Source: a virus
IMG/VR virus record: IMGVR_UViG_3300030098_006630
Span: 1 to 64,000 of that record
Length of the DNA: 64,000 bases
Direction: 5' to 3' (one strand)
Below the pieces are notes generated by a model. It did no database searches. It was given only the letters and a program-made list of their open reading frames with translations, and was not told the DNA's origin. Positions 28,575 to 64,000 of the stretch are shown here, in pieces; within the stretch, counting starts at the first letter, position 1; every line of letters begins with the position of its first letter. Both the position numbers and the translations under genes were made by a program.

Positions 28575-28575
28575 T

Positions 28576-34163: not shown

Positions 34164-34179
34164 CGTCAAAGGAAAAATT

Positions 34180-35604: not shown

Positions 35605-35607
35605 CAA

Positions 35608-37598: not shown

Positions 37599-37599
37599 G

Positions 37600-44677: not shown

Positions 44678-47600
44678 ATGGCAGAAATATTAGATTTTCT
44701 TGATAAACGAGTCACCAAAATAGAGGGCGAGTATGGAAACATGCTAGAGGTTTCTGAATACACCCCCGAAGAGACTGCGGATAAATATTATATCTACGAC
44801 ATAGGATTCGAGGAAGATACTGGACCCGTAGTGAACGCTTCTGATAATTTAAATTATTGGTTCTCGCAAGATTCTACAGATGCTAAAGCCCCATATCATT
44901 TGAAAAATTATACTTTAGTGGCGTGGGATGGGGTTAGATATTTTCTTAACAATAGTGAAAATAGATGGGTCGGAAAAATTACCGTAGTTGATAAAAGTAA
45001 AGAATATGCTAGACAACCCGAGGAGCCAGATTATTTAAAAGATTTTAGCGGAGGCTGGTCAACTGTCGAAGATATACCTGATTTTGATAAACAAGACAGT
45101 TTCTGGAAAAATACCTGGTACGAGCCTACTGTCGTCCCAGATGCTAAAATTTTAAGAACGATAGGCAAGCCAACCAGGGGCGTTGAATATTGGATAGATC
45201 TTAGCAAGATGCTTACCGTAGGACCAAGTGACTTTCAAGAAAGCAATTCTTTGGTAGTAAAAGATGTCATATTAGACAATGCAGAGGATTTAGAGTCCTT
45301 AGATCGTTCTACTCCTTGGCGAGACTCGCCAGACAATACAATATATCAGGATACTTTAAATTATTATGTTCATGTAAATTCGTATAAAAAAACTATCCCG
45401 CTTGAATCTCAAGATGCAGACCGCAAGAAATTTTTTCGGCAATTTGTTATCAATGCAGTAGAGGTCTTAGCAGACAAGCAACACAGAAACATTTCTCAAG
45501 CAAATGCAGAATCAATAGCCAATTATCTTGTAAAGTTGCCCCGAAAGGACGTTTTTACTACCAGTATAAAACCGAGACCTAATTCATTTTGGAAAGCCTT
45601 GGTTAAAATACCGAGAGCATATATTGATCCTTATGAAATTGTTCCAAAGGTTCAATCTACGCATGTAGGAGTCTTTAGATCTTGGCACGACTTAGAAGAA
45701 AGTTATAAGAAAGTAATTAAATATTTCAATAAGTTAATCCCTCTTGTTGAACAAAACACCGTCAGATTAGACATGAAGCAGGAAATAAAATTTTTAGAAA
45801 AGGTGTGGACTAATCTTGCATCTATTAAACAAGCTCCTGTACTTCAAGAAGGCACTATTAGATACTATGGCGCTAAACAACCATCTAATATTCAAATAAC
45901 TGATGATACAATCGTAAAATTTGCGTTCAACAGGCGTAATAATTTTTCTCTTGAAAATATAGAAATTGTGAATCAAATGGAAGGCTCCGGCGTCGTAAGT
46001 ATTACTGAACGAATTTTACGAGCAATGATAGATCTCAATAAATCTGGCATTAAAAATAATGACGTTTTTAAACGAGCCCGAACAATGATTTATTTGATGA
46101 ATTTAGATCTCATGGCTCGCGACATAGATGATAAGGCTTTCGGTGGAGAAAACAAATGGATTGATTTTTTGTTCAAATACACCTACAAAATGCCTGATTT
46201 TCTTCCTTCTAACACTGACTTTGATAAAATAAATTTTCAAAATAATGAAGTGACATCGTTCTTAAACAAGATAGACCGAGCTTTAGACGGACCAAAGACT
46301 TTATTTTCCAACAACAAAATAATGAGAGAAATATCTCCCGATGTTAGGGGGCTTTTAGCAGACGTTAAAAAGTCGGTCTATTCCAAGATAGAAGATCCTA
46401 CTTTACAAAAAATATTTCAGACAATCGATGGGGTTAATTCGTTAGAATCTTTATATAGCGATGTACTAAACAAGGCACCTATTGATAAGCTAATAGAAAT
46501 GGGAAGACAAGTTGCAGACCCTATAGCTAAGCAGCAAATGTTTATGAAGAAGTCGTCACTCTTAAAGTCCCAAGCAAGGCTAAGCGAAGGGCGTTTGGAA
46601 AATTTAAGAGGGAAAAAATCTTTACGCAAAGTGCAGGTTACAACACCTCAAGAGAAAGCCATCACGGACCTTACCGGGCAACAGCCCGACATGATTATGA
46701 AGGCTATTGAGGAGCTTTTTGTAGAGGGCTTGTGTAATAATATAAAACACATTATCAAGACCATTAGGAGAATGGCATTTTCTCCTACCACCACTCAAGA
46801 TACGAAAGATTTTGGAAAGCTTAATATTCAAGATACTGTAAAAGAAAGTCAAGATGAAATAATAAAAAATATCTTGAATTCCATACCCGAGGGAAAAGAT
46901 TTAGATTTATTTGATGTCAAAAAGATACTTACAATAATTTCAGAAAATTGCATTCCTAGAGAGATTGTGGCTCTTGTCGAAGGTGAGGCTTCCTTACCTG
47001 TTTTAGAGATTTTAGGATACTTGATCGGTTATGAGTTTCCCATTCTAGGAGCGAGGCTCGATAGTGTTTATGATATAGAAGAGTTTTTAGCGTTGATATT
47101 GAAGCCATTAAGAGAGCAAATAATTCAAGCTACTGCCAAAATCGAGCTGGACCGAAAAGATGAAGAAGAAAAGGCTACCTATTGTGCGCCTGATTATGAA
47201 GAAGTGACTAATCATCTCGTAGACCGCTTCCCTGAAGATATTGCTAGAGCAGCTATGGACGGCGAAAAAAGCAGCAAGATTGATTTTTTAAATCTCTTGA
47301 ATGACATCGACAGTGCACTTAATAAAGATATAAATGAATTTATTTTTGGAAATAAGCTGGATTCAATTTTAAATCAAATTATGACAGAAGATCAAGGTTC
47401 TTCTTTTCTCACTAGCATGGTTATAGAGAGCTTTTTCTCTCCTTTCATAAGAAATTTTTCTATCGAGGGTTTAAATATTTCAACTTTCTTCTTAGAACCG
47501 CAGCTGGTAGATAAAAACCCTTCAGATACCACCTCTAGAACAGTTTCCCCTCCTGAAATTACATCTAGAATTGGGGAATTGACAGCGGAAAGAGATTCTT

Positions 47601-50600
47601 TAGTTTTAAAGAGAGACTCTTTAGATAAAGACGATAACAAAGCACAACGAAAGAAACTAAAAGAACAAATCGACAATATAAATTCTTTTTTAGAAGCAAC
47701 TACGAATTCCAAAAAAGTTGTCTTGGGATTAAAAAATAGAGTACAATTTTTAAAAGACGTATTTGCAGAAGGGGTAGGTACATGGACAAGAACCTCGACA
47801 GACCCCATAACATATATTCTATCTATCCCTCTTACACAAGAAGACGAAGCCGGAACTTCCAGTTTTATAGAAATGAAGATATATCCGATGGAGGAGGTTT
47901 ATCAAATAGATCCTGATAAACCTTTAGCTTATGATGCTTCCTGGAAGAAGCCTGGTAATTTTCAAGAAAAAGATTCAGTTAGGATAGAAATAAGAGCAGT
48001 TATTACTGACACAGTAGTTGTAGAAAGTAGCAGCATCATAAACACTCGTGAATTATCTATATATGACTTCATATCCAACGACGATACCGGACATACCATT
48101 CAAGCTTCTGCTTTCTCTAACATTATTAAGGCGCAGATAAAAGATTATTTTCCTGACTATATCTGGACAGAGGGTTTAGGAGAAGAAGAAGAACTTGATG
48201 TAGGAAACGCATATAAACTTCAACAGTTGATAAATGATTTTAAAAGTTATTTATTTGATCTGCTAAACCAGCAATTATTAAAACTTGTATCTAAAGAAGC
48301 CTCCAAGTCTTCCTTTTTTAAAGAAAGCGTACTGTCACAACTTAGGATTGCTTCATTACCAGGAGATGCAGAAGCAGGACCTCCTCCTCTCTGCGGCGAA
48401 GAATATAGTGAAGAAGTGGTTCCGCCCGCAGACAGGTCGTTGTTCCCAGAGCTTTTTGATTTAGATGATATTGTAGAAAATGTTAAGACTCGAAAAACGT
48501 ATTTTGATGTTTTGGCTGCGACTGGTCACACAGGGGGCGTCCCCAATCGCTCGTCTTTAGATAATGCAATAATTTTTGAATCTTTAGAATTGCTAATGCA
48601 AGTAATTTGCTTAGAGTTTTTACTTAGTGGAATATCCATCTATGGCGAGGTTAGCTTAGAAACTTTTATAAAAGAAAAAAATAATTTTAAAATTTTGCAA
48701 GATGTTTTAGATTTTTCTCTTGAAAGCCTTGGTGGCGACTTTACTGGAGCTTTCTATAATGTTGTAGATGAATATGCTACTCTTCGACAAGAAGTGGCTT
48801 TTGAGGCATCTGTTATGCCGCCTATGCCTCTTTTTGCACCTGCAACACCGGACGGTAGCATTACTCCTTCAGTTAGAGATGAAATAGTGAAATTTTGTCT
48901 TACCGAGGCTTTGGAAGAAATCTTTCCCATCTTCCAAAGCATTGTTCAGGTTTTTTCTGCTAGTGATAAATTATCGGCTAATGAGTTGTTAGATATTGTT
49001 CCAAATATGGACACCGCCCCACAAACCATATCAAATACAGTAAGATTTGATTTTAATGACGAAAAAATAAAAGATGTGTATGATTTTGGAGGAATCGTAG
49101 TAGAGAAGTATATTAAAGCCATCTACACGCCCCCCGCAGGACTAGAAGATAAAAGCTGGTATCACCCTGCTCATTCTGCCTTGCACAAAATGCTAATAAT
49201 AGATCCTCAAACTCCTTCTTCTTATGTTCAAGATGAATCTGGTCAATGGATTGAGAAAGAAGGCTCTCCTGTGAGCGCAGCCAGAAATATAAAAATTGAG
49301 GAATGGTTAGCAAGTAGAAATCAAGAATTGAACCTTAATCAAAACCCTCCTTACATGGCAGGGGTATCGTGGGAAAGTAAAAAGAAAGCCGAACGATTAA
49401 AGTCTTGGTTAGATATATTCTCTGAACAAGGATTGGAAGGAATTGAAAAGCTTAATATTGCGGGTTATCAAGAATTTGTAATTGAGTTAAACGCTTTTGA
49501 TTATTCGTCGCTAAAAAACAACGAATTTTATCCTATCGGAGGCAAAACAGGTGTTGTAAATTTAAAATCTTTTGAGTTGCTTCAACAACAAATTAATGAT
49601 TATAATGCCCCTTTTATAGAAGAGTCACAAGACAAATTGGATCTTTTAACCAGCGCTTCGACATTTAAGAATAATTTTTTAGCTCTAAAACAAGAAAAAG
49701 AACTTCATCTTTTAACGCTAGAAACTTTAGGCGCTCAGCTGGATGAATACTTAATGGACTACTTAAACACATTTAGAGACGATGGCGCTAACAAAGGAAA
49801 AGAATATATTGTTCAACACGGAACGTTCACGTTCGACGCAGAACCTTCAATGGATGAAGACCCTAGAATTTTTTCGGATAAAGTTATATTTGAATGGATC
49901 TCGGGAGATTCGCCTTATTATCATTCTTTAACAAAAATATTAGAAGGAGGACCAGTACAAAAAAATACTGAAGAGTGGTGGGGGTTAGAATATCCTGGAT
50001 ATGAATTGGCTCAAAAATACTGGACAGCTGTTCTTGCTATGACTGGTCTACAACAAAATGCATGGCTTGTATCAGGTTATGATATGGACACGGTGACAAA
50101 TCTTTTCAAAGCTCAGATGGAAAGTTATCTTAAAGGTGATAAATACATGGCAGAGAATGACCCGTTTCTTTTTGGTCACGTAAAAAAATTACAACAATTC
50201 TTTTTTCTAAATCCTCTTTTTGGCAAGATGATTTCTACCCTTGTAGGTGGAGCTTACTATTCTGATTACACCGGTTTTGAAAACTCAACCGCCGCCGGAG
50301 ATCTTTTTGATCCAGCGGGAATTCTTGGAGGAATATCTAGTTTAATTCAAGCTGTTGATAATCAAGGAACTGAAGCCTATACTGACGACCTGGAGCAAGG
50401 AGGAATGGCAGAGACGACTTCTGTCTCAACTTCTTACTATGATGGATTGATAGAGTATTATGAGAATAGAATAGATCCTATCTGGCGCAAATGGAGCGAA
50501 ACTCTCCATTATCTCTTAAACCCTCCAGAGGCAGCTTTAGAGAAATTTAATTACTGGGACACTCAAAAGAAAATAACTGAAAAAAGAATAGAATGGTTCG

Positions 50601-52024
50601 AAAAAAACATGGAAGCCATGAAGACGATATATACACAATTTCTTTCTGCACAACAAGCAGTATTGACAACCAGTCAAGCGATGTCTTCGTTACTTGCGGA
50701 AGCTGAAGTTAATTTTGAGTCGGACATTGATGACTCTAGCCGAGCTTACGAGCTTTATACTGACCCTACACAATGGTTTGAAAATGCCGAGTTTATTAGA
50801 CAATACCTTCTAGATAAAGCGGAAAAAGAAAAAAATAACAATGTCATTATGGGTGATTATAAGAAATATTTTGGTTCTTTAAAATATGGAATTAGGATTT
50901 CTTATGTTTTTCCGAACTTTGAAGATATTAGTGTTCCCTTCGGTCTCCAGCATAAATTACAGGCAATACTTCCCAGCCTCTCAGAAGATAAAGCTAGGTT
51001 GGCGGAAATTAAAGAGAATCTTAATGAACTGTTTAACGAACCTACGCATAGCAGAAATATCTTTCATAAAGCTTTTAAATTGGAAGAAAAGCTCTTAAGT
51101 AATACTGGAGTTCAAACAACTAAGATTAATTTATTGCCTCTGGTTACTTACGAAGAGGACATAGATAATTTCCTTTTTTCCGATGAGGAACAAACGGGAC
51201 CTACTGTACTAGAAGGTCTCTCTGTTCCTATCGAAAATATGGACATTTCAAATGAAAAATCCTTTCCTTTTAAAGAATTAAAACAATCTTTGATGGAGAC
51301 ACCTGGATATAGAGGGATTTTTGGAGAGTGCATGTATTATGGAGAATTAATTAACTGTCTAGGACTCTTCAGCAGTTTGGTTATTTTAAAAGACTTCTAC
51401 AACACATCGCAATCAGGGATATTTTCAGGTACAAAAATTAACTTAAAAAACATCATGGAAGGGGTTATGGAACAAAGAGATTTTAGAGCCAAATCCGCAG
51501 ATTTAACTCCATTGGAAAAAATGAAAAACAACTTCCTTTCCCTGTCGAATGTGGCGGAGAATCCACGCGGAGAAGGGAAAGACCCTCCCAATAAATCAGG
51601 ATATGCTGCTGTTTTTGCTGCCAAGACCGCGTTAAAAATTCTAAAAGGAGTTGTAGAGACAACTGACCCAGCTATTATTCAAGGTAAAAAGCTTCAATCA
51701 GCTCTAGTGGGAGCGATAAATGCTTCTAAAGATATATCTCAGACTTTAGCACAGATCACTGGTAACGAGATCCCCTCCAGCGATTCAGATAGCTTTTCGC
51801 AAGCCGAAAAAACACTTGTTAATGATGCCATGCTTGGACCCGTCGTCTTTATTGGAGTAAGACCTTTCCCGCCCATTCCTTTCCCGGTAGGGAATCCTAT
51901 ATTCCCCCTTACAGCCGCTGGAGCCACATATTTAGCTTTAACGACTGCCATGTCTTTAGGCGACTTGACAGGAGAAAAGAAATCTAAAGCTGAAAAAGAT
52001 GAACCTTATTGCGTAGAAGGATAG
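44678..52024 (+). CDS. Very large (2448 aa) probable virion/baseplate protein
   Basis: Uninterrupted 7.3 kb ORF between the spike-like gene and gp25. Confidence 0.75.
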   Translation: MAEILDFLDKRVTKIEGEYGNMLEVSEYTPEETADKYYIYDIGFEEDTGPVVNASDNLNYWFSQDSTDAKAPYHLKNYTLVAWDGVRYFLNNSENRWVGKITVVDKSKEYARQPEEPDYLKDFSGGWSTVEDIPDFDKQDSFWKNTWYEPTVVPDAKILRTIGKPTRGVEYWIDLSKMLTVGPSDFQESNSLVVKDVILDNAEDLESLDRSTPWRDSPDNTIYQDTLNYYVHVNSYKKTIPLESQDADRKKFFRQFVINAVEVLADKQHRNISQANAESIANYLVKLPRKDVFTTSIKPRPNSFWKALVKIPRAYIDPYEIVPKVQSTHVGVFRSWHDLEESYKKVIKYFNKLIPLVEQNTVRLDMKQEIKFLEKVWTNLASIKQAPVLQEGTIRYYGAKQPSNIQITDDTIVKFAFNRRNNFSLENIEIVNQMEGSGVVSITERILRAMIDLNKSGIKNNDVFKRARTMIYLMNLDLMARDIDDKAFGGENKWIDFLFKYTYKMPDFLPSNTDFDKINFQNNEVTSFLNKIDRALDGPKTLFSNNKIMREISPDVRGLLADVKKSVYSKIEDPTLQKIFQTIDGVNSLESLYSDVLNKAPIDKLIEMGRQVADPIAKQQMFMKKSSLLKSQARLSEGRLENLRGKKSLRKVQVTTPQEKAITDLTGQQPDMIMKAIEELFVEGLCNNIKHIIKTIRRMAFSPTTTQDTKDFGKLNIQDTVKESQDEIIKNILNSIPEGKDLDLFDVKKILTIISENCIPREIVALVEGEASLPVLEILGYLIGYEFPILGARLDSVYDIEEFLALILKPLREQIIQATAKIELDRKDEEEKATYCAPDYEEVTNHLVDRFPEDIARAAMDGEKSSKIDFLNLLNDIDSALNKDINEFIFGNKLDSILNQIMTEDQGSSFLTSMVIESFFSPFIRNFSIEGLNISTFFLEPQLVDKNPSDTTSRTVSPPEITSRIGELTAERDSLVLKRDSLDKDDNKAQRKKLKEQIDNINSFLEATTNSKKVVLGLKNRVQFLKDVFAEGVGTWTRTSTDPITYILSIPLTQEDEAGTSSFIEMKIYPMEEVYQIDPDKPLAYDASWKKPGNFQEKDSVRIEIRAVITDTVVVESSSIINTRELSIYDFISNDDTGHTIQASAFSNIIKAQIKDYFPDYIWTEGLGEEEELDVGNAYKLQQLINDFKSYLFDLLNQQLLKLVSKEASKSSFFKESVLSQLRIASLPGDAEAGPPPLCGEEYSEEVVPPADRSLFPELFDLDDIVENVKTRKTYFDVLAATGHTGGVPNRSSLDNAIIFESLELLMQVICLEFLLSGISIYGEVSLETFIKEKNNFKILQDVLDFSLESLGGDFTGAFYNVVDEYATLRQEVAFEASVMPPMPLFAPATPDGSITPSVRDEIVKFCLTEALEEIFPIFQSIVQVFSASDKLSANELLDIVPNMDTAPQTISNTVRFDFNDEKIKDVYDFGGIVVEKYIKAIYTPPAGLEDKSWYHPAHSALHKMLIIDPQTPSSYVQDESGQWIEKEGSPVSAARNIKIEEWLASRNQELNLNQNPPYMAGVSWESKKKAERLKSWLDIFSEQGLEGIEKLNIAGYQEFVIELNAFDYSSLKNNEFYPIGGKTGVVNLKSFELLQQQINDYNAPFIEESQDKLDLLTSASTFKNNFLALKQEKELHLLTLETLGAQLDEYLMDYLNTFRDDGANKGKEYIVQHGTFTFDAEPSMDEDPRIFSDKVIFEWISGDSPYYHSLTKILEGGPVQKNTEEWWGLEYPGYELAQKYWTAVLAMTGLQQNAWLVSGYDMDTVTNLFKAQMESYLKGDKYMAENDPFLFGHVKKLQQFFFLNPLFGKMISTLVGGAYYSDYTGFENSTAAGDLFDPAGILGGISSLIQAVDNQGTEAYTDDLEQGGMAETTSVSTSYYDGLIEYYENRIDPIWRKWSETLHYLLNPPEAALEKFNYWDTQKKITEKRIEWFEKNMEAMKTIYTQFLSAQQAVLTTSQAMSSLLAEAEVNFESDIDDSSRAYELYTDPTQWFENAEFIRQYLLDKAEKEKNNNVIMGDYKKYFGSLKYGIRISYVFPNFEDISVPFGLQHKLQAILPSLSEDKARLAEIKENLNELFNEPTHSRNIFHKAFKLEEKLLSNTGVQTTKINLLPLVTYEEDIDNFLFSDEEQTGPTVLEGLSVPIENMDISNEKSFPFKELKQSLMETPGYRGIFGECMYYGELINCLGLFSSLVILKDFYNTSQSGIFSGTKINLKNIMEGVMEQRDFRAKSADLTPLEKMKNNFLSLSNVAENPRGEGKDPPNKSGYAAVFAAKTALKILKGVVETTDPAIIQGKKLQSALVGAINASKDISQTLAQITGNEIPSSDSDSFSQAEKTLVNDAMLGPVVFIGVRPFPPIPFPVGNPIFPLTAAGATYLALTTAMSLGDLTGEKKSKAEKDEPYCVEG

Positions 52025-52479: not shown

Positions 52480-54282
52480 ATGGTAAAAAAATTCACTCCC
52501 CCTATTGACTATACAGCTAGAGATTTTGATTCTATTAAATCTTCATTAATAGAATACGCTAAGAGATACTACCCCAATACTGCTACAGATTTTAATGATG
52601 CTTCTTTTGGTGCGTTAATGATTGATATGGTGTCGTATGTAGGAGATGTCCTTTCTTTTTACTTAGATTACCAAGCATCCGAGTCTTTTTTGGATTCTGC
52701 AATTGAACTAAAAAATGTAATACGCTTAGCCAAACAGCTAGGATATAAATATGATGGAGAGGTCACTGCATATGGTATAGTATCTTTATATCTCCAAGTA
52801 CCAGCGAATGTTTCTGGTCTTGGTCCCGACACTCGCTATCTCCCAGTCCTCCGCGAAGGAACTCGCTTATCCTCTACATCCCGAGTGCCTTTTATTTTAA
52901 CTCAAGACGTTGATTTTAATTCCGGCGATGCACAGGTTCTTGTTGCACAAGTCGATGAAGAAACCGGAAATCCTTTATCTTACGGAGTAAAGATGTATGG
53001 CGAAGCAATATCTGGCGACATAGGAACCTACACCTTTCCTCTGGGAGAGGACGTTTCATTTCCCAAGGTATTTTTAGATACTCCTGCGGTAGCTGAAATA
53101 TTGTCTGTATTTGACGCCGAAGGACATGAATACTATGAAGTCGAGTATCTATCGCAAGATATAATTTATAAAAGCTTGCCTAATCGAGGAAACGACAAAG
53201 ACATTGTTTCATCTATTTTAAAAACAGTGTCGGTTCCGAGGCGTTTTGTTTTAGATAAAACACCTGAAGGCTCTTTCTTACAATTTGGCGGCGGCTCCAC
53301 ATCAGACGCCATTATTGAAAACGATGAAACCCTTAATCCTAGCAACGTTGCTTTAAAGATGCATGGAAAAAAATATATTAGTGCTACCTCTTTTGATCCT
53401 TCAAAGTTAACTAAAAACAATAGCCTTGGGGTCGCTCCATCAAATACAACTATAACCGTCACTTATCGCTCTAATTTATCTGGATTGGTTAATCTTGGAG
53501 TTGGAGAGCTTTCGAGCGTAGATGTGACTTTGATGTCCTTTGAAGAAGAGAACTCACTTACCCCTGGCATCATGACAACAGTCAGGAACAGCCTAGAAGT
53601 CACTAACGAAGAGCCTATTGTAGGAGATATACAGTTTCCTACTGTTGATGAAATAAGAATACGTGCTCAAAATGCCTACTCTACTCAAAACCGAGCAGTA
53701 ACTGTCGATGATTACAAAAGTCTTGTATATAATATGCCGGCTAAATTCGGAAAAATAAGAAAGTGTAAAATAATGCAAGATAAAGATTCTTTTAAACCAA
53801 ACATGAATTTATATACGATTGGAGCAGGTCTCGATAATACTTTACAGCCTCTTAACAATAAAATTAAAGTAAACTTAAAAAATTGGCTTTCTAACTATAA
53901 AATGATAAATGATACTTTGGATATTTTGGATGCAAATATTGTAAATCTAGGCATAAAGTACAAGGTAATAGGAGAAACTAACATTAATAAGTTTGATTTA
54001 ATGCAAGATATTTCTGTCGCGCTAGAAAATCACTTTAGCAAAATTCCTGAAATTGGAGAGCCTTTTTACATTACAGACGTGTATAATGTTATAAATGTTT
54101 TAGATAATGTAGTAGACACGGTTGATGTAGATATTTTTATTCAAAACGGTGCGCTTTATTCCGATTACAGCATTAATCTCACTGAAGCTCTGTCTCCTGA
54201 CGGACGCTTTATTAAAATACCCCAAGATGCTATATATGAAATAAAATTTATAGAAGATGATATTCAAGGTAAGATTGTATAA
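52480..54282 (+). CDS. Baseplate wedge protein, T4 gp6-like
   Basis: DYTARDFDSIK, ESFLDSA, QNRAVTVDDY. Confidence 0.9.
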   Translation: MVKKFTPPIDYTARDFDSIKSSLIEYAKRYYPNTATDFNDASFGALMIDMVSYVGDVLSFYLDYQASESFLDSAIELKNVIRLAKQLGYKYDGEVTAYGIVSLYLQVPANVSGLGPDTRYLPVLREGTRLSSTSRVPFILTQDVDFNSGDAQVLVAQVDEETGNPLSYGVKMYGEAISGDIGTYTFPLGEDVSFPKVFLDTPAVAEILSVFDAEGHEYYEVEYLSQDIIYKSLPNRGNDKDIVSSILKTVSVPRRFVLDKTPEGSFLQFGGGSTSDAIIENDETLNPSNVALKMHGKKYISATSFDPSKLTKNNSLGVAPSNTTITVTYRSNLSGLVNLGVGELSSVDVTLMSFEEENSLTPGIMTTVRNSLEVTNEEPIVGDIQFPTVDEIRIRAQNAYSTQNRAVTVDDYKSLVYNMPAKFGKIRKCKIMQDKDSFKPNMNLYTIGAGLDNTLQPLNNKIKVNLKNWLSNYKMINDTLDILDANIVNLGIKYKVIGETNINKFDLMQDISVALENHFSKIPEIGEPFYITDVYNVINVLDNVVDTVDVDIFIQNGALYSDYSINLTEALSPDGRFIKIPQDAIYEIKFIEDDIQGKIV

Positions 54283-55814
54283 TGGCTATTAAAAGATATT
54301 CCGCAATTAAAGATACGACAATTTCTAACGCTTATAAATCAAACTTAAGCGGAACGGCTACGGGCTCTAATATGGGCTCCGCCGACGCATTGGAAGTTTT
54401 TTCCATATATGGACAGATATCCAATAGCTCTGGTTTTTCAAAAGAGTTGTCTCGTATTTTGGTACAATTTCCAATCACGGGGACCACTAGTATTAAATCT
54501 GATCGAACCTCTGGAGACATTCCAGCCTCCGGTAACGTATCTTTTTATTTAAATCTTTATAATGCAGTAACGCCCAATACTGTGCCGAAAAAGTTTAAAT
54601 TAAATTTATATGCAGTCGATGCCGGCTGGGATGAAGGTTTCGGACTAGACATGGAAGAATATAAAAATATCGGAGTTGCCAATTGGGACCAAAGAGCTAC
54701 GAATGCGGACTGGTCTTATACGGGAGGTTCTTATATTAACACTGCTTCTATGACCGATGGCGGAGCGTATGCGTTTTTCGAAGACGGCACTGAAGACTTA
54801 TCAGTAGATGTCACCCCTTATGTAGAATCCTGGATTAAAGGCGGCGCAGCCGGCGGGTTTGATAACTTTGGATTTTTGGTTGCCTTTACTCCTACTGAAG
54901 AAAGTGCTTCTAGGTCCTATTATGATAAAAAATTCTTTGCTAGAAGTAGTGAGTATTTCTTTAAACGACCCAACATTGAAGCAAGATGGAATAGTTCTAA
55001 TACCGATGATAGAGGAAAATTTTACCTTTCTAGCGCCTTAGCTCCAGCCTCAGACAACATCAACACTCTATATCTTTATAACTATGTTAGGGGGCAACTC
55101 CAAGACATCCCAGGGCTAGGTAGCGATAAATACATTTATGTCAGCTTGTTTTCCGGCTCTCTATTAAATACCGTCCCTACAGGAGCAGCTCTTGAATTGT
55201 CTGCTGACGACGCAGGGCGCGTCCGAGCAGACTATAACACTGTAGTAACTGGTGGGATAGCTTCAACAGGCATATATACCGCCTCTTTTGCATTCACTGG
55301 CTCTTCCGGTTTAACTGATGTGTTTGATGTATGGTTTACGGGTAGTATGACAACTACTAACGCGGAGGATGCTATCATACAATTCCATACAGGAAATGTA
55401 TCAGTTAAGCATCTTGACGCTTCTAATATCAACCCTACTACTCGTTATGTAACTAAAATTACCAATCTAAAACCATCATATACCCAAGACGAAGAGCCTA
55501 AACTAAGGGTATATACGAGAAAAAAAGACTGGTCTCCTAACATATACACTGTTGCCAATTCTCATATTCAAACTGATAATATTGAAAAATCTTATTATCG
55601 AGTGGTGAGAACTGTAGACAATTTGGAAGTTATTGCCTATGGAACAGGAAGCGATCAACAAACAAAATTATCATACGATGTGAGTGGTAATTATTTTAAT
55701 CTAGACATGAGTCTTTTGGAAAGTGGATACATGTATGATTTAAAGTTTGCTTATTATTTAAATGGAACCTACAAGGAACAACCAGAGAGCTTTAAGTTTA
55801 GAGTGGAGGATTAA
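54282..55814 (+). CDS. Virion structural protein (beta-rich)
   Basis: KDTTI, SRILVQF, WDEG.G, TKLSYDVSGNYF; translationally coupled to gp6. Confidence 0.75.
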   Translation: MAIKRYSAIKDTTISNAYKSNLSGTATGSNMGSADALEVFSIYGQISNSSGFSKELSRILVQFPITGTTSIKSDRTSGDIPASGNVSFYLNLYNAVTPNTVPKKFKLNLYAVDAGWDEGFGLDMEEYKNIGVANWDQRATNADWSYTGGSYINTASMTDGGAYAFFEDGTEDLSVDVTPYVESWIKGGAAGGFDNFGFLVAFTPTEESASRSYYDKKFFARSSEYFFKRPNIEARWNSSNTDDRGKFYLSSALAPASDNINTLYLYNYVRGQLQDIPGLGSDKYIYVSLFSGSLLNTVPTGAALELSADDAGRVRADYNTVVTGGIASTGIYTASFAFTGSSGLTDVFDVWFTGSMTTTNAEDAIIQFHTGNVSVKHLDASNINPTTRYVTKITNLKPSYTQDEEPKLRVYTRKKDWSPNIYTVANSHIQTDNIEKSYYRVVRTVDNLEVIAYGTGSDQQTKLSYDVSGNYFNLDMSLLESGYMYDLKFAYYLNGTYKEQPESFKFRVED

Positions 55815-55816
55815 AA

Positions 55817-58800
55817 GTGTCTCTAAAAGACTTATTTAAAGACATTGAAAGAATCGGGACAACCACCACAGCATCAGCTCCAGATGTTCCTGTTATTAAA
55901 GAACAGGTAGAGTCTGTCAGCTTTAGTCGCGAAGTTCAAGAAAGACAAAAATCATTTGTTCCTCATGTGGATTTCACACAGGCTAAGAACTTTGCTAAAT
56001 ATGGGTCGGCGGAAGAATATTATGCTAAAGGTATTGAATATATTTATTCCTATTATCCTTACGACGGCTCTCTCAAAGAAAAAGAAGAGTGGTATAATAA
56101 TGTTACTTATTTAGAACAATATGTGTTTGATCATGAATATCCCCGCACTAATGGATACGTGATTTTGTCAGCCGATGGATGGGGGACCACCACTGTAACT
56201 GACGGGTATGGTTTGCCATCATCACTAGAATACATACAAGTGAAGAGTGGACCTCATGAAAAAAACATATGGGATGAAAGTAAACACAGAGAAGAAAATT
56301 TAAAATTTGCTCTGACGGGTGGTCTTACGGTAGAATTTTGGCTAAACAAGACTGAATTTGTTACCAGTAAAACTCAAAAAGAAGTTATTTTTGACCTGTG
56401 GAATGGTAAACATTTTAATGATACTGAATATGGTCGATTTAGAATCGAACTCTCAGGAACGTCACCAGGAGCAGCATTCCGGCTCACTGCTCTGTCAGGC
56501 ACCAGTGGATTTCATGATGCACCGGTTGGTGAGACTGTAACCCCTTCTATTGTTTCTAATAGTGACTGGTCTCACTATGCTTTTTCATTGTATAACACTG
56601 GTTCCTCGGTACTGGTTGAAATGTATAGAGACGGCGTGTTCATAGAATCCATGACCACGGGAAGCGCGATTGGGCATGTTACGGGAACTATGATTGCGAA
56701 CATAGGGGCGCTTCGTACTCCTCCTCGAAATACCTCTGCCGCAACCGGTTCAGGAAAGCTTTCCGGCTCTTTAGATGAGTTTAGGTTCTGGAAATCACGT
56801 CGTACCGCTAGAGATATTGGGAGATATTATATCTCTCAAGTGGGAGGAGGGACAAATACTGATGACGCTAATACTGAACTAGGGCTTTATTATAAATTCA
56901 ATGAAGGGATTACCGGCGATAGCACGTATGATAGGGTCGTTTTAGATTATTCAGGTCGCCTTAGTAATGGAACTTGGACTGGATATAACTCTAATTCTCG
57001 TAATACCGGCTCTGCAATGGTTTTATCAGGAGAGACTACCTTCGAGTTTAAAGACCCTATTATTTACCCAACTCACCCAGCGGTAGTTGCTCTTTTAAAT
57101 TCTAAAAAAGAACTTGGAGAAGAGTACGATATTAATAATCCTGCTAACATGTATAATAGCTTTCCTTCTTGGATTATAGATGAAGATAGCGATGCGGGGA
57201 GTGAGCTAAAAAGCCTTACTCAGATAATGTCTAGCTACTTAGATGAGTTATATCTTCAGATAGAAAACGTCCCTGCGCTCAAGGACAAAGAATATCCTTC
57301 TGGTAGTTTATTAACTGGAAGTCACAAGCCTTATCCATTCTCTAAACAACTCCTCACGAGCCATGGCTTTAACACGCCAGAATTGTTTGTAGATACCAGT
57401 GTTATAGAACAATTCTTATCACGCAATGAAAAAATTAAATACGAAGAGAAAATTTATAACACAAAAAACCTTATTTATCATAACATTTATAACAATCTAA
57501 TAAATATTTTCAAATCCAAAGGAACAGAAAAATCTATTCGCAATTTAATTCGCTCCTATGGCGCTGATGAAGATATCATAGCAATCAATGTTTATGGACA
57601 TAACGAACCATTTGAATTAAGAAAAAATGTCGAACAACGCACTTTTAAAAATAAAGTTATTGATTTTAATCAAAGCGATAGAAATGTAGCTACCATCTTC
57701 CAATATCAAACTGGCTCTGGTACAACTTCTTACATCTCCGGTTCTCGATTAAACGATCTTACGGTCCCTAATACTGTTGAATGCGAAGTGTTCTTTCCTC
57801 ATAAAGCACAAGAGGGTAATCGTAGTTACTATTATTATCCTGATATCTCCTCTTCATTGTTTGGGCAACATACGGTTAACCTTGGAGCAGCGGACATTAA
57901 TGTCTTGCAATGGGCAGACAATGATGATGCATCTTTCCAGGTATACGCAGTCCGTGACGTTATTGATTCAACTAGGGCTAAGTTTGTTATCACAGGAGCT
58001 GCTTTTTCTCCGCTCACCACAAGTTACTACTCTAATGTTTATGAAAATTCCAAATGGAACTTCGCTGTTAGATTAAAGCCGTCTCGTGAATTTGGCGATT
58101 TAGTATATTACGGCTCTAATACTGATTATGATTTAGAATTTTATGGAGTTCATGAAACAATGGGTTCTATTGAACATGAATTTATTCTTACGAGCAGCCT
58201 TTCCGCTACCCGAGGAGAGGCTTGGTCAAACGCCCCAAAACGTATTTACGCAGGCGCTCACCGGACAAACTTTACCGGTAGCTTGTTAGAATATACTGAT
58301 GTAAAGATAGCTAATGTGAGATTCTGGCTTTCGTATTTGACCAATGAAGTTATTCAAGACCATGCGAAAAGTTATGCAACTTATGGACCATCCCAGCCTT
58401 TAAATGATGAAGGATTCACGCATGTAAACTTAGATAATACTGAGATTCCTTCTTTAGAAACTTTAGCATTAAATTGGAATTTCGGCAATGTTTCTTCATC
58501 GGCTGACTCTTCTGGGCGTCTTCTTGTGGATGACTTTTCATCAGGATCATCCGAATTGACTAGTCGATATTCCTGGGTTGGCGACATCACTAAACAGCTA
58601 TATTCAGGAAGGGCAGATTTCTTTTTACCGAACGAGCCGAAAGCTGCCGATATCGAATATGTGTTTTCTACGAGAAATCGACTACCCGAAACCTTTATTA
58701 GCTCTGACATGATTTCTATTGGAGAAGACGCAGATAAAATTTTCACTTTAGATAGCCGACCTGTCCATTATTATTTTTCTATTGAAAATAGCTTGTATAG

Positions 58801-61207
58801 AGTTATTTCGGAAGAAATAATTAATATTTTTTCTTCTATTATAGACTTTAATAATCTTATTGGAGAACCTGTAAATAAATATAGAGAAACTTATAAGGAT
58901 TTATCTAAACTCAAACAACTGTTCTTTGAAAGAGTAGAGAACAAGCCAGATATTGAAAGATATTTCACCTACTTTAAACATATTGACAGCTTCCTACAAC
59001 AGTGCCTGGAAAAGCTTTTGCCGGCTTCAGCCAATGTTTCTGATTCTGTTCTTAATATTGTTGAAAGTCACGTCCTAGAAAGAAATAAGTATAGACATAA
59101 ATTCCCTACACTAGAAAGCAAACAAGGTGACCCCGAAGCTGCGATTCTCGGTATTAATGAGATGCTCTTTGACTGGAAGCATGGTCACGCCCCTATTCCT
59201 GAAAATCAAAATACTAACTGTTTATATTGGCATGACTTAGCCGAACGAGGCGGTTCTGTCTTGACTTCAGGAAATCCAACCGTAGATGAACAGAGAGAAA
59301 CAATAAAAGATATTGTAAATTCTAGTGTATCCGGTAGCAATTACGCCACAAGAAAATTTGCCCAAGTTTATAATTTAACTACCAAAGAACCTCTTGATCT
59401 CGGCGGCGGCGCAAACTTAAAATCTAACAATATATTTGGATTTTACCGCCAAGTTATTAAATTTAACGACAGAAACAATTATATTAAAATACCTTTCGCT
59501 GAAAGCAAACTTAATAAAGATTGCAAGGAAGCCACAGAACCACAAGAATTAACCAAGAGAGTAATGGATGTTCCCGCTATCGCTTACAACGACGGAGAAC
59601 CCCCGCGAGCTAATGATTATAAAGATGGAAATGCAAACTTATTGCTTCCCTTTACTATCTTTTCATCGTCTTTGGATACAGGATATTTAGGTATTGTTGC
59701 CGACGCACACAGCGCTTCTTTTGAAAATATGCATCTAGATGTTGTTGGGACTCATGGAACACTCCCCTTACAGGGTCCATTTACCGAAAAGTATGTTGGA
59801 GGACTCCAGTACCGCCATGCCGGTTTAAATTACAAATCCCCTACCAAAGCTCTAGACAATTCCTTCACCAGACCAGAAGGATGGTTCTTAAAAATTCCCA
59901 CCGCCCCAGGACGCGCTGCAAGCCTCCTGAGCGAATCTTTCTCCGCAACTGACCCTGTGGGTTGGCGGAACGTTGGAAGTACCGCTACAGGACCTTCTGG
60001 GTGGATTCTAACGCATTCTGGACCGACTCCTTCTATGAATACTGGACCAAACTCAGCATTCGATGGAGATTACTACGCTTATGCTGAAACTTCCAACCCT
60101 AATCACCCCGGCAGTGCTTTCGGGCTAGTGACTCCAATAATCGACGCAGCCGATATGGGTGGAGATAACTTTAGTGCGTCTTTTTATTATCATATGTATG
60201 GCGTAAATGTTGGTAGCCTTAAGGTTCAACACTGTGAGAGCCCTTTATTCGGAGCAAGTGTAACTGATTTATCAGTGGTCTGGGATTTTGTATCTGCCCC
60301 TGGCGTTGAAGCGGAGCATATCGCTGGACAGCAACAAGCTAATGCAACAGATCCCTACAAACAAGCTCAAATTGATCTTTCTGCTTATGCAGGAACAGAA
60401 TTTTATTTACGATTCTTCTATGAAGGAGGTATAACTTATCTCTCTGACGTTGCTATTGATGCTATCGAGGTTTCTGGTACATCAGGAGGCTCAACTTATA
60501 AGCTTTTAGATCCTTCATGGGATAATCCAAATAAACCAAGAGCTGTTTATTATAGAGATGAAGTAGCGAAAAGACCTCTTAATATTAGAAATATTAAAAT
60601 GACGAGTTCTTCTCCTACCATTATTGGTAATTATTCTCACAATTATGAAGTTGTTAATATTCCTGGAAGAAACGTGAACAACCTATGGTTTGTTCAAAAT
60701 TCGGGAGCAGTGGGGCAAACAAAGGTTTTATCCGATTTTATAACCTCTAGCTATGATTACTCGCTGAAAAACCGCGACAACCTACAAGACGGTAGTAAAA
60801 ACCGTACTGTGATAGTGGAAAGGTTTTCCGCACCCGGAGGACCTGAAGTTATGAGCCGGGGATTTTTAGATGTAGCCTCAGAAACGTATTCCGTCTATAA
60901 CTGTTTAAACTACAGAAATTCCACTGTCCGAAACAACTTAAATATTTGGGAAAAACATCATAGTATATGGGGAGGGTACGATGGAGTTTATGGTTTCCCC
61001 ACAGCATCATACCATCAGGTTCAAAGGAATACAGGACTGAGACTTCAATTGAGTGGAAATTTAGTATTAGCAGGGTCGAGCATCAATAACGGAATGCCCG
61101 TTGTAACTGCCTCTTATTACGATAATGGCTTTGTAACACACCAGATTCCCCAAACCGACGCAGGATATGCTTGGATTTCTGGTTCTATTACTGGCTCTCT
61201 AATTTAA
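55817..61207 (+). CDS. Large virion protein with LamG-like and MAM domains
   Basis: LTVEFWL...WSHYAFS...SGSLDEFRFW (LamG); KSKGTEKSIRNL (baseplate-type motif); TPSMNTGP...YAETS...FYYHMYG...DVAID (MAM). Confidence 0.8.
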   Translation: MSLKDLFKDIERIGTTTTASAPDVPVIKEQVESVSFSREVQERQKSFVPHVDFTQAKNFAKYGSAEEYYAKGIEYIYSYYPYDGSLKEKEEWYNNVTYLEQYVFDHEYPRTNGYVILSADGWGTTTVTDGYGLPSSLEYIQVKSGPHEKNIWDESKHREENLKFALTGGLTVEFWLNKTEFVTSKTQKEVIFDLWNGKHFNDTEYGRFRIELSGTSPGAAFRLTALSGTSGFHDAPVGETVTPSIVSNSDWSHYAFSLYNTGSSVLVEMYRDGVFIESMTTGSAIGHVTGTMIANIGALRTPPRNTSAATGSGKLSGSLDEFRFWKSRRTARDIGRYYISQVGGGTNTDDANTELGLYYKFNEGITGDSTYDRVVLDYSGRLSNGTWTGYNSNSRNTGSAMVLSGETTFEFKDPIIYPTHPAVVALLNSKKELGEEYDINNPANMYNSFPSWIIDEDSDAGSELKSLTQIMSSYLDELYLQIENVPALKDKEYPSGSLLTGSHKPYPFSKQLLTSHGFNTPELFVDTSVIEQFLSRNEKIKYEEKIYNTKNLIYHNIYNNLINIFKSKGTEKSIRNLIRSYGADEDIIAINVYGHNEPFELRKNVEQRTFKNKVIDFNQSDRNVATIFQYQTGSGTTSYISGSRLNDLTVPNTVECEVFFPHKAQEGNRSYYYYPDISSSLFGQHTVNLGAADINVLQWADNDDASFQVYAVRDVIDSTRAKFVITGAAFSPLTTSYYSNVYENSKWNFAVRLKPSREFGDLVYYGSNTDYDLEFYGVHETMGSIEHEFILTSSLSATRGEAWSNAPKRIYAGAHRTNFTGSLLEYTDVKIANVRFWLSYLTNEVIQDHAKSYATYGPSQPLNDEGFTHVNLDNTEIPSLETLALNWNFGNVSSSADSSGRLLVDDFSSGSSELTSRYSWVGDITKQLYSGRADFFLPNEPKAADIEYVFSTRNRLPETFISSDMISIGEDADKIFTLDSRPVHYYFSIENSLYRVISEEIINIFSSIIDFNNLIGEPVNKYRETYKDLSKLKQLFFERVENKPDIERYFTYFKHIDSFLQQCLEKLLPASANVSDSVLNIVESHVLERNKYRHKFPTLESKQGDPEAAILGINEMLFDWKHGHAPIPENQNTNCLYWHDLAERGGSVLTSGNPTVDEQRETIKDIVNSSVSGSNYATRKFAQVYNLTTKEPLDLGGGANLKSNNIFGFYRQVIKFNDRNNYIKIPFAESKLNKDCKEATEPQELTKRVMDVPAIAYNDGEPPRANDYKDGNANLLLPFTIFSSSLDTGYLGIVADAHSASFENMHLDVVGTHGTLPLQGPFTEKYVGGLQYRHAGLNYKSPTKALDNSFTRPEGWFLKIPTAPGRAASLLSESFSATDPVGWRNVGSTATGPSGWILTHSGPTPSMNTGPNSAFDGDYYAYAETSNPNHPGSAFGLVTPIIDAADMGGDNFSASFYYHMYGVNVGSLKVQHCESPLFGASVTDLSVVWDFVSAPGVEAEHIAGQQQANATDPYKQAQIDLSAYAGTEFYLRFFYEGGITYLSDVAIDAIEVSGTSGGSTYKLLDPSWDNPNKPRAVYYRDEVAKRPLNIRNIKMTSSSPTIIGNYSHNYEVVNIPGRNVNNLWFVQNSGAVGQTKVLSDFITSSYDYSLKNRDNLQDGSKNRTVIVERFSAPGGPEVMSRGFLDVASETYSVYNCLNYRNSTVRNNLNIWEKHHSIWGGYDGVYGFPTASYHQVQRNTGLRLQLSGNLVLAGSSINNGMPVVTASYYDNGFVTHQIPQTDAGYAWISGSITGSLI

Positions 61208-61216
61208 TGAAAACAA

Positions 61217-61223
61217 CTATTTA
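61217..61223 (+). promoter_or_regulatory. Candidate late promoter motif CTATTTA
   Basis: Within the 24-nt gap before ATG 61232. Confidence 0.5.
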
Positions 61224-61231
61224 AGAATAAC

Positions 61232-64000
61232 ATGAACGACGAAAACCTCACATTTATTAGCGCCAGTAGCGTTGGAACTTTCATGGGCACCAACACCAGC
61301 TTCAAGGGAAGGCTTTTTGGTGCAAATCATAAAAACATCGGAGAGTTTTATACAGGTATCTCTAATATTAATAATTTTATTCCTAATGATTTCGTCGGGT
61401 TAAACACTATTATTTTTGAACCATTTGATGCCAACAGTCATACTTTGGGATATCCGGCTTTAACTTTCACGAATAACGACAACGCCCCAGGAACGTTAAA
61501 TCCTGGTCAGACTGAGTATTGTAATTATATTAATTCTTCTATTGTTGTTGGAATGGACCCTTCTACGGGAAAGATAGATAACACGATAAACATGAAAGAC
61601 CCTAGCGGAAACGGCTGGGGAGAGCTAGCTGGAAACTCTACTATACTAAATGCTATCATTCACCACCGCCAAGGTCCTTATGGTTGGCCAACGTGGAAAC
61701 AAGTTCGCACTGGCAACCATCCTCTGGCGAGATATTGGAAAGAAAACAGCACCTGGACAATTACTTTAAAACCCACCATTAATCAACTTACGAGCTTGAT
61801 GTTTTATGACAATAATGCCACTAATTTAGCTGAAGCAGCTCAAGGGGCACCTATAAATCTACAGTTCGTCCAATCTCCAGTTAGCAATAGAGATAAACCT
61901 TTGGTTCATACTTTTCGTGTCCAACAAGATGGCAACACCAACTATCTAACTCTTAGAAGTTCATATGCCAATTTAAAAGATCAGTTTGCCAATAATAACC
62001 AAAACTTATGGTCTCTTAAGACTAACAAATATGCATCTAATATAGAAATAATTTATGATGACTTAAAAAATATTTATATCGATGAAGACTATGGAGACAA
62101 CACTCCTTTTAAAGAATTTATGGTCTTTAGATACGGACAAGGAATTTACCCCAAACAAACCAATAAATTCCTACAGCGAACTCGTCAAAGAACCGTATAT
62201 GGAGAAGTCGCCGGAACTGGACTTAACGGCATCGATCAGATAAATCCACGAACTTTCTGGAAAGTGGTCTCTTCCTCTGCCACTCCCGTTAAGACCGTCG
62301 CTGAGTGGGATTTAAGCCCTAGACGAATAAGAACATCCGAAGCATTAAATTCGCAAGGAAACATTATAGGAGCCAGAACCATAAGTGGCTCCGCTTTAGG
62401 CGGACAGCCATATGCCGCTCTGCACTCCCCTGGAATTCGCAGTGTGTGGTCACTAGATACGGGAATTAATACTGGTAGTGCTTATTCTAACGGCACGATA
62501 GTCGCAGGCGAATTAGGGTGGAGACAGACTCAAGGGAGTGTAGGTGGATTTAGAACGCAGGCTTATAATACTTGCTCCGCAGGTGCTTATAGGCAAGACC
62601 TACGAGCAGATTATAGTGGCACCTACACCCAAATACCTGTGTATGCATCCGACCTAATTTCAGGAAAGCAAGCTTTTTTTAATTCTTACGAAGATTTCGC
62701 GGAAGATATAAGAGGTTTGGGAAAAGGAATGTCTATCTTACCAGAATTCAAAATCTCAGAGCACATGGAATATTATGTAGTAGAAGAGGACGGCGATTTC
62801 TTGGCTCAAAACGATGCTTATCTTTCTTTAGAGGGTGCAGCTATTACCTCAAGCGCTGCAAGCGAGCTACAGTATACAGGCGAGCGTGATAGTGCATTTA
62901 TAATAAACAGCCGCACATCAGGAATGAATGAAACATTTTTCTCTGATTATTCTCACAGCGACTTTCTTAAATATTTTGATATGTTTAAGTCGGATCACAA
63001 AGGTAAAGCTAACTTATCTTCGTATACTCTCAAAACCACAGGGATTAAAAAGCTATTACCTTATAGAGGTTTTTATCCTCACCAACGTGCACTTCAGCTT
63101 GCTACATTATTTTCTCAGTCTTTTGCTGAAAGCTATAATTTTAACGGGACGCATACTAACACTTATTCTCCCAATGAAAAAGCTGGCTGGAATGCAATCT
63201 TACGCCCCTTCTTTAATCCAGGCGTTTGTTTCAACTCTTTAAGATCTGCTGTGGCAGTTAACTTTCCAATGATGACAGGCTCTTCTGTCGTCGATTTGGG
63301 AATAGAAAACGTAGGAGACATTCTTGGATACACTAGTATAGAAGGCGGAACTTCTAATTACAAACTTCCATTTGAAGCTATTATTTCACCTGATCAGTAT
63401 CTTCCGTTGAGCACGGGAGCCACTACTAAATATATATTAAATGACGAAGTAACTCTAGGTGATTGGGCTGCTGGTACATATAATTTTAATACCGCCTATG
63501 CACTTTACGGAGGGACTCATACTGAACTTTATTCACTAGCTGCAAATAACTTTTTCGGAGAAATTCCGCGATTTTTCTTAGAGAATAAAGCCTTTACGAG
63601 CATTACATCTGCTCCGCAAGGAGAGTGGCAAGAAGTTGTGCCGACAAAAACCTACTATATGGACGTGTCTCTATATAAGACAAAGAACATGCTATTATCA
63701 GAAGGCAACGCTGAAGAAAATCTTCGCGGCTCGATATATGGGAATCCAAACGCCAGTAATTATGCGAACACTACCCATTCTAATAAATTTAAAGATCCTG
63801 CTTATGCTGCATACACACCTCCGTATTTTTATGAGAAATCGACTGCTAGAATAGCCTACACGCCCAGCACCCCTGGTCGCCCAACAGTAAAAGAACTTTT
63901 ATCTCGAATTGAACAAGCTATTTCTTTAGATGATAACTTCAAAGCTAATGATTTCGGAGCCACCGCTGTTTCTGGAACTTTTTACACAGGTTCAGCCTAT
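61232..64000 (+). CDS. Large virion structural protein, 3'-partial (absent from the ORF track)
   Basis: Hand translation MNDENLTFISASS...FIPNDFVGLNT...HRQGPYGWPTWKQ...; still in frame at the window end (...SGTFYTGSAY). Its absence from the track fits a frame with no stop; the middle was not checked codon by codon. Confidence 0.85.
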   Translation, partial: MNDENLTFISASSVGTFMGTNTSFKGRLFGANHKNIGEFYTGISNINNFIPNDFVGLNTIIFEPFDANSHTLGYPALTFTNNDNAPGTLNPGQTEYCNYINSSIVVGMDPSTGKIDNTINMKDPSGNGWGELAGNSTILNAIIHHRQGPYGWPTWKQVRTGNHPLARYWKENSTWTITLKPTINQLTSLMFYDNNATNLAEAAQGAPINLQFVQSPVSNRDKPLVHTFRVQQDGNTNYLTLRSSYANLKDQFANNNQNLWSLKTNKYASNIEIIYDDLKNIYIDEDYGDNTPFKEFMVFRYGQGIYPKQTNKFLQRTRQRTVYGEVAGTGLNGIDQINPRTFWKVVSSSATPVKTVAEWDLSPRRIRTSEALNSQGNIIGARTISGSALGGQPYAALHSPGIRSVWSLDTGINTGSAYSNGTIVAGELGWRQTQGSVGGFRTQAYNTCSAGAYRQDLRADYSGTYTQIPVYASDLISGKQAFFNSYEDFAEDIRGLGKGMSILPEFKISEHMEYYVVEEDGDFLAQNDAYLSLEGAAITSSAASELQYTGERDSAFIINSRTSGMNETFFSDYSHSDFLKYFDMFKSDHKGKANLSSYTLKTTGIKKLLPYRGFYPHQRALQLATLFSQSFAESYNFNGTHTNTYSPNEKAGWNAILRPFFNPGVCFNSLRSAVAVNFPMMTGSSVVDLGIENVGDILGYTSIEGGTSNYKLPFEAIISPDQYLPLSTGATTKYILNDEVTLGDWAAGTYNFNTAYALYGGTHTELYSLAANNFFGEIPRFFLENKAFTSITSAPQGEWQEVVPTKTYYMDVSLYKTKNMLLSEGNAEENLRGSIYGNPNASNYANTTHSNKFKDPAYAAYTPPYFYEKSTARIAYTPSTPGRPTVKELLSRIEQAISLDDNFKANDFGATAVSGTFYTGSAY

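Follow-up and report, generated by a model that had tools for sequence, protein, structure and literature searches.

To our knowledge, glycosylation of phage virions has been established in only a few mycobacteriophages, and no sequon has been defined for it. Among other systems, GtfA and GtfB form a tandem pair of GT4-fold proteins that acts as a cytoplasmic O-GlcNAc transferase on serine, in S-x-S contexts, of serine-rich-repeat adhesins, with GtfB as the non-catalytic partner. The chlorovirus PBCV-1 has a virus-encoded, host-independent N-linked glycosylation of its capsid that uses an atypical sequon on the major capsid protein and unusual methylated sugars. Mycobacteriophage virions are glycosylated by phage-encoded glycosyltransferases (Freeman 2023, Cell Host Microbe, as cited in PMC12619734). 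As far as the citing account describes them, these soluble enzymes act in the cytoplasm on the phage's own structural proteins and give the virion a glycan coat; the glycans are reported to sit on the C-terminal ends of the capsid and tail-tube subunits, and that account defines no tripeptide sequon. In the BAHT family, AAH and TibC hyper-O-glycosylate many serines of the beta-rich surface proteins AIDA-I and TibA in the cytoplasm, and TibC heptosylates serine in N-S-G-G and T-S-A-A turn contexts (PMC4358343). Here we describe a tripeptide, Ser/Thr-Gly-Ser/Thr, in the virion proteins of an uncultured aquatic phage, together with a tandem pair of GT4 glycosyltransferase genes that may act on it. 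The window analysed is the first 64 kb (positions 1 to 64,000) of a 97,175-bp IMG/VR phage contig, IMGVR_UViG_3300030098_006630, estimated to be 54% complete. The stretch at 52.5-64 kb lies within the virion module of a myovirus, and upstream of it an island of sugar-related genes spans 20.2-38.6 kb (Table 1).

In the outward-facing virion proteins of this phage and its clade, Ser/Thr-Gly-Ser/Thr occurs about 4-8 times more often than expected by chance. Shuffling of the 510-aa protein gave an expectation of 2.9 for the wider pattern [ST][GA][ST], of which 11 are present (z 4.9), and the 1796-aa protein contains 27 against 6.8 expected (z 7.8). Two neighbouring proteins are not enriched: the 2448-aa protein has 3 [ST][GA][ST] (4.5 expected) and 1 [ST]G[ST] (2.1 expected), and the gp6-like protein has 2 (1.4 expected) and zero, respectively. 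The initial annotation had counted the motifs in these four proteins by eye, and its counts were exact. It had also described the motifs as scattered and not part of a tandem repeat, in agreement with BLAST comparisons that revealed no repeats inside any of the three window proteins, and the excess it had noted persists after shuffling of the whole proteins and of windows of 40, 20 and 10 residues, which rules out an artefact of overall or local composition. Its remark that more motifs lie in the last open reading frame (ORF) holds in part. The portion of this 1320-aa protein inside the window is weakly enriched (8 [ST][GA][ST] against 4.5, p 0.07), whereas the full-length protein has 11 against 5.3 expected and 8 [ST]G[ST] against 2.9 (p 0.003-0.01 under all shuffles).

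The sequon tests were carried out on a set of enriched proteins drawn from the window at 54282-64000 and from the contig at 73818-76236 and 90679-93399. Residue order matters: of the three arrangements, [ST]G[ST] is enriched, G[ST][ST] mildly at most and [ST][ST]G not at all, and shuffling revealed no enrichment of [ST][ST][ST]. An unbiased scan of all 8000 tripeptides in the enriched proteins ranked TGS, SGS and SGT first, second and fourth (25 against 3.8 expected, 24 against 4.8 and 14 against 3.8, respectively); the same three tripeptides occur as often as expected over the 25,025 aa outside these proteins, and SGN, SGD, NGS, DGS, AGS and SGA showed no enrichment in the scan. The two hydroxyl residues are cooperative. 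When Ser/Thr precedes Gly the probability of Ser/Thr following it is 0.53, against 0.20 otherwise, compared with 11% and 13%, respectively, in the other proteins, and the motif is found at 1.79 times its first-order Markov expectation (p 6.5e-6), so that independent dipeptide preferences are ruled out. As many as 15% of the glycines in the enriched proteins lie inside the motif, versus 1.6% elsewhere. The residue before it is hydrophobic (Phi) in 66% of cases against a background of 32%, and the extended form Phi-[ST]G[ST] reaches a pooled count of 46 with 4.8 expected.

Because the motif is encoded by 60 distinct 9-mers, it has no cause at the DNA level, and this diversity, together with conservation down to 34% protein identity, rules out a DNA motif or codon bias. 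Known sequons do not account for the signal either, as none of those searched for is enriched in the same proteins. The N-x-S/T sequon of N-linked glycosylation (by NGT/HMW1C or OST) occurs 55 times against 63.7 expected (z -1.3), and neither S/T-P nor S-G-x-G is enriched. The general O-glycosylation sequon of Bacteroidota, D-[ST]-[AILVMT], is under-represented, with 9 instances where 21 are expected (z -2.9); that system acts on exported proteins, whereas virion proteins are cytoplasmic.

Relatives of the two most enriched window proteins retain the motif. The 510-aa family has about 600 relatives in IMG/VR, from which 79 sequences of 46-92% identity were extracted. All 79 carry between 5 and 12 [ST]G[ST], with a mean of 8.2 against 1.8 expected, and the permuted patterns average 2.0-2.3. 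Five motif sites are kept in 58-76 of 80 sequences, and the other half of the instances is distributed over some 47 further columns, giving 52 alignment columns used overall. At the conserved sites the first Ser/Thr and the Gly hardly vary; Ser is the usual third residue, with Asn, Ala or Thr found there less often. The 28 full-length homologs of the 1796-aa protein (34-91% identity, 1800-3277 aa) contain 14-32 motifs each, with a mean of 21.4 against 6.6 expected; these fall in 186 alignment columns, and 17% of them are in highly conserved columns. Motif density is thus kept while the positions turn over.

Elsewhere on the contig, a paralog pair of 407 and 394 aa and a 906-aa tail fibre carry the signal too. 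The portal, the terminase and neighbours that are equally rich in Ser/Thr have no motif excess. We also analysed a 100%-complete relative of 185.5 kb, G002. Its enriched proteins are the orthologs of those on the contig, a 155-aa protein whose gene adjoins that of the fibre, a fibre-repeat protein encoded at 180 kb and the Gp23-like major capsid protein, with 7 motifs where 1.7 are expected. Its 998-aa sheath has a weaker excess (6 against 2.4), with the motifs concentrated in extra N-terminal domains. No enrichment was detected in the portal, terminase, tape measure, gp6 or giant internal protein of this genome, and no enriched ORF outside its virion genes.

The Gp23-like capsid protein of G002 (L094:10620-12479) and of 13 relatives contains a variable insertion of 147-225 aa between conserved core segments, and in the marine clade the motifs are denser in this insertion than anywhere else in the protein. 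Over 14 capsid proteins, 50 motifs fall in the surface insertion, where 13.6 are expected, and 18 in the conserved core, where 8.2 are expected. The motif excess is confined to the outward-facing parts of the virion, that is, the distal baseplate, the fibres, the insertion of the capsid protein and the outer domains of the sheath. BLAST detects no homology among the enriched proteins other than within the paralog pair and between fibre C-termini, which at that sensitivity rules out a single shared mobile domain. The folds that carry the motif are likewise different, including LamG, carbohydrate-binding module (CBM)-like and Ig-like domains, fibre repeats, the capsid insertion and the outer domains of the sheath.

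Structural placement was examined in AlphaFold2 (AF2) models of the 510-aa protein (predicted local distance difference test, pLDDT, 73) and of residues 150-520 of the 1796-aa protein (pLDDT 80-94 in the LamG part). The predicted fold of the 510-aa protein matches CBM jelly rolls and Ig-like domains. For most confidently modelled motifs the first Ser/Thr is predicted to be the last residue of a beta-strand or to lie just beyond it, with the Gly in a hairpin turn of two to four residues at the edge of a beta-sandwich. This predicted placement is exemplified by S213, S227, T261 and T281 in the 1796-aa protein and S291 and T353 in the 510-aa protein. In the fibre, some motifs lie within a repeated structural unit.

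The tandem GT4 pair is present in 15 of 15 related long contigs and in two cultured phages that are distantly related, Flavobacterium phage vB_FspM_immuto (immuto) and Microcystis phage Mel-JY01. Rhodothermus phage RM378 carries GT4 no. 1 with a degenerate tandem partner that has lost the second Glu of the EX7E motif, and the pair (9165-11893) lies between a DNA-polymerase-I-like gene and a ribonucleotide reductase gene. LR756508, an uncultured phage of 484 kb, has a homolog of GT4 no. 1, which is present in all 19 clade members tested. The cultured GT4-carrying relatives infect three host phyla. No PF00534 gene was found in phages T4, S-PM2, P-RSM6, HTVC008M, HSE3, LuckySocke, Atu_ph07 or Xoo-sp13. 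Measured on ORFs of at least 250 aa, the observed/expected ratio of [ST]G[ST] in structural regions is 1.9-4.1 in GT4-positive phages versus 0.8-1.8 in GT4-negative ones, and the cooperativity odds ratio in these regions is 1.98-4.57 versus 0.68-1.43 in the eight GT4-negative phages. For the whole genome of RM378 the odds ratio is 1.55, and for the non-structural halves of the window phage and of G002 it is 0.60 and 1.11. The fibres, baseplate, sheath and capsid of T4 have no motif excess, and T4 and seven other phages rule out a general property of myovirus fibres and baseplates.

The two GT4 enzymes of the window are paralogs with 22% identity. Homologs of GT4 no. 2 in cultured phages were found only in immuto and Mel-JY01, along with weak matches in Streptomyces phages, and nearly all of the Atlas clusters closest to it are 100% viral; judged by these sequence comparisons, it is a member of a phage-specific family. 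The remainder of the island, annotated from Pfam and NCBIfam scans, encodes a GT2-like protein of 536 aa, WecB, a DegT aminotransferase, methyltransferases, an RmlD-like protein, a C-methyltransferase, epimerases/dehydratases, a heptose-7-phosphate kinase (HldE domain-I) and a protein resembling GDP-mannose-4,6-dehydratase. A sequence search of a structure database gave nothing informative for GT4 no. 2 or the 536-aa protein. The sugar-nucleotide content varies between relatives, with epimerase genes numbering from 0 to 7, and as candidate enzymes the two clade-conserved GT4s are better supported than the island as a whole. The same Pfam and NCBIfam scans found no flippase, polymerase or priming transferase (Wzx, Wzy or priming enzyme) in the island. 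No ThyA-family hydroxymethylase (PF00303) was found on the contig or in four 100%-complete relatives, and DNA glycosylation would therefore lack its usual acceptor. With neither lipid-carrier and export genes nor a hydroxymethylase, a protein acceptor in the cytoplasm would be the simplest target.

Among the systems introduced above, the locus shares features with that of the mycobacteriophages. Two genes for apparently soluble, phage-encoded GT4 enzymes with intact EX7E motifs are predicted, and a cytoplasmic modification of the phage's own structural proteins that coats the virion is here proposed from sequence. Unlike in the mycobacteriophages, the candidate sites are scattered and are concentrated in an internal capsid insertion, the distal baseplate, the fibres and the sheath, rather than being C-terminal; the GT4 pair is a different, phage-specific one, and the hosts are Gram-negative or cyanobacterial. 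As with the acceptors of the BAHT family, the AF2 models would put the acceptor Ser of the motif, with a small residue after it, at a strand-turn junction; the island also encodes a heptose-7-phosphate kinase, one possible enzyme of a pathway for an activated heptose donor. However, PF01075 has no match at E <= 0.1 on the 54%-complete 97-kb contig, which rules out a BAHT heptosyltransferase (a GT9-type enzyme) there. The candidates are GT4 enzymes, the folds are diverse instead of a beta-helix repeat, and the motif requires hydroxyl residues on both sides of Gly.

An enzyme and pseudo-enzyme pair of the GtfA/GtfB kind was rejected, since both paralogs keep EX7E in the marine clade. The substrates also differ from low-complexity Ser-rich repeats, given their lack of internal repeats and of [ST][ST][ST] enrichment. 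With regard to chlorovirus PBCV-1, structure 3oy2, the GT4 B736L, gave a weak sequence match; the PBCV-1 system differs in being N-linked, in belonging to a eukaryotic virus and in its sequon. In T-even DNA glycosylation a ThyA-family deoxynucleoside monophosphate (dNMP) hydroxymethylase provides the hydroxymethylpyrimidine acceptor, and DNA glycosylation of this type was rejected for lack of such a gene on the contig and in the four complete relatives.

An ordered, cooperative motif that recurs in unrelated folds, on exposed parts and in one lineage, and that the same types of fold elsewhere lack, points to an extrinsic reader rather than to the physics of folding; the obvious candidate for that reader is the GT4 pair kept throughout the clade. 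As the best explanation we put forward, tentatively and with doubts that slightly outweigh our confidence, that selection has made Phi-[S/T]-G-[S/T] a surface tag and the O-glycosylation acceptor of this phage-specific pair. The virion glycosylation of mycobacteriophages and the heptosylation of Ser-Gly and Ser-Ala turns by TibC are precedents. Under this proposal the motif, placed at a strand end or hairpin turn, would serve as the tag on outward-facing virion proteins, the two GT4 enzymes would O-glycosylate it in the cytoplasm, and the variable sugar-nucleotide island would provide donors or lengthen the glycan. Three steps of this proposal are inferred: a modification of the motif, a sugar as the modifying group, and the GT4 pair as the enzyme. 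Somewhat more doubtful is the wider claim of a self-contained, GT4-read sequon system that would coat every outward-facing virion domain and be shared throughout a very large clade of abundant aquatic myoviruses with hosts in at least three phyla, with turnover of sites as in a glycan shield. No publication describing the motif was found in a literature search.

The initial annotation had suggested a selected sequon serving as acceptor for the adjacent glycosyltransferase island, with motifs in exposed turns and a density that follows the presence of glycosyltransferases. None of the three checks that it named as possible refutations counts against the idea. An ordered, surface-restricted and lineage-wide motif is what we find, and its excess outlasts correction for composition. 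Its predicted position in the confident parts of the two AF2 models is at strand ends and hairpin turns, with the capsid motifs concentrated in the surface insertion, and the GT4-negative phages do not have the cooperative signal. The connection to the island and to glycosyltransferase presence is correlative and confounded by descent.

Several observations weigh against the glycosylation proposal. The GT4-positive phages with the signal form a single clade by gp6 and capsid similarity, so motif and GT4 may merely be co-inherited, and no clade member free of glycosyltransferases was found. The capsid insertion is not enriched in immuto, Mel-JY01, RM378 or LR756508. The motif is not depleted in non-structural proteins, although an enzyme in the cytoplasm would encounter these as well. 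Among unrelated phages with distant GT4 homologs (S-CBS4, S-EIV1, Mae-JY09 and Tomas), two of four have modest cooperativity. The GT4-negative, T4-like marine phages S-PM2 and HTVC008M have a mild excess of [ST]G[ST], 1.7-1.8-fold in their structural regions and roughly 1.7-2-fold, with little cooperativity, in giant structural proteins (S-PM2 43949-53965; HTVC008M 30-90 kb); a weaker tendency of another kind, or a different enzyme, may lie behind it. Some motifs coincide with structural glycines of other families, such as the G-x-[IL]-D-E site of LamG, and the exchange of Ser for Asn or Ala at the third position of conserved sites resembles ordinary type II' hairpin turns.

The last of these points lead to an explanation that we regard as possible but doubtful, namely that the motif is purely structural. 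It would then be a solution for capping the C-terminal end of a strand or making a hairpin turn, with a Gly of positive phi flanked by backbone-capping hydroxyls, that has spread in the beta-sandwich and fibre domains of this lineage; the motif would never be modified and the glycosyltransferases would serve some other end. The strand ends and short hairpin turns of the AF2 models are consistent with it, as are the near invariance of the first two residues with a Ser/Asn exchange at the third, the motifs inside a fibre repeat unit and the mild excess in S-PM2 and HTVC008M. Yet T4, HSE3, Atu_ph07, Xoo-sp13 and P-RSM6 have the same kinds of fold with neither excess nor cooperativity, the usual turn formers Asn, Asp and Ala are not enriched in the genome, and beta-rich non-structural proteins of the same genomes are without the motif. 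Its occurrence in unrelated folds, and a density kept although most instances are not conserved in position, also argue against it.

The GT4 pair and the island could act on hypermodified phage DNA or on the host surface, with the motif unrelated to them, which we consider unlikely. There are phage glycosyltransferases that hypermodify DNA (Pyle 2024, as cited in PMC12619734), and in RM378 the position of the pair between genes for a DNA-polymerase-like protein and ribonucleotide reductase would suit such a role; set against this are the four 100%-complete clade genomes without a ThyA-family hydroxymethylase and an island without a flippase, a polymerase or an undecaprenyl-phosphate priming transferase. 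Slightly less probable still, in our view, is that the motif is selected for something else, be it phosphorylation, acylation, addition of a phospho-sugar or glycerol phosphate, or a 'nest' that binds anionic polysaccharides of the host. Such a site would share its statistics and surface restriction with a glycosylation site, and the 510-aa protein does resemble CBMs that bind anionic polysaccharides. However, we have no candidate for an alternative enzyme, the GT4 pair being the only enzymes among those tested that co-occur throughout the clade, and ligand binding would leave the joint presence of the motif on capsid, sheath, baseplate and fibres unexplained.

If the glycosylation proposal is correct, glycan coats would be common on phage particles, laid down at a tripeptide sequon by a dedicated enzyme pair in hundreds of environmental phages, and they would bear on adsorption, stability, grazing and evasion of defence. 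Glycosites would become predictable from sequence alone, and the pair would offer a compact cytoplasmic protein-glycosylation system for glyco-engineering. As immuto, Mel-JY01 and RM378 are in culture, the proposal is directly testable. Should the motif be structural instead, it would still be an unusual, lineage-specific turn grammar.

Table 1. Coordinates of the virion and sugar genes discussed (window numbering unless marked)
Feature	Position	Strand	Remarks
GT4 glycosyltransferase no. 1, 419 aa	20225..21484	+	Pfam PF00534, E 2.8e-17; EX7E intact
GT4 glycosyltransferase no. 2, 415 aa	21484..22731	+	Weak PF00534 match; EX7E intact; in tandem with no. 1
Rest of sugar island	22741..38550	+	Pfam and NCBIfam scans
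2448-aa protein	44678..52024	+	Internal negative control; directly upstream of gp25/gp6-like genes
gp6-like baseplate wedge protein	52480..54282	+	PHROG 219, E 1.8e-26; internal negative control
510-aa distal baseplate protein	54282..55814	+	Motif-enriched; multi-domain beta-sandwich with CBM-like jelly roll and Ig-like domains
1796-aa virion protein	55817..61207	+	Pfam: LamG at residues 164-334, MAM-like at 1395-1552; strongest enrichment in the window
1320-aa virion protein	61232..65194 (contig)	+	Moderately enriched; window holds the N-terminal 923 aa, to 64000

With respect to the neighbouring genes, the 2448-aa protein has no Pfam or PHROG match, and its ortholog in G002 is 2137 aa long. 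The 510-aa and 1796-aa proteins have no match in PHROGs or in the annotated phage collection. A tmRNA with the tag ANDNVVNDYALAA was identified by ARAGORN at 12237-12659 of the window, and a tRNA-Thr(TGT) directly follows it. Upstream of the sugar island, at a distance of about 2 kb, a PIN-PhoH fusion protein is encoded (16862-18187). Residues 759-836 of the 1101-aa protein at 40361-43666 form an N-acetylmuramoyl-L-alanine amidase domain, and the protein, which also has a linker rich in Pro, Thr and Ser, is probably a tail-associated lysin; the GC content of its region is locally high (0.44), and the protein is without motif enrichment.

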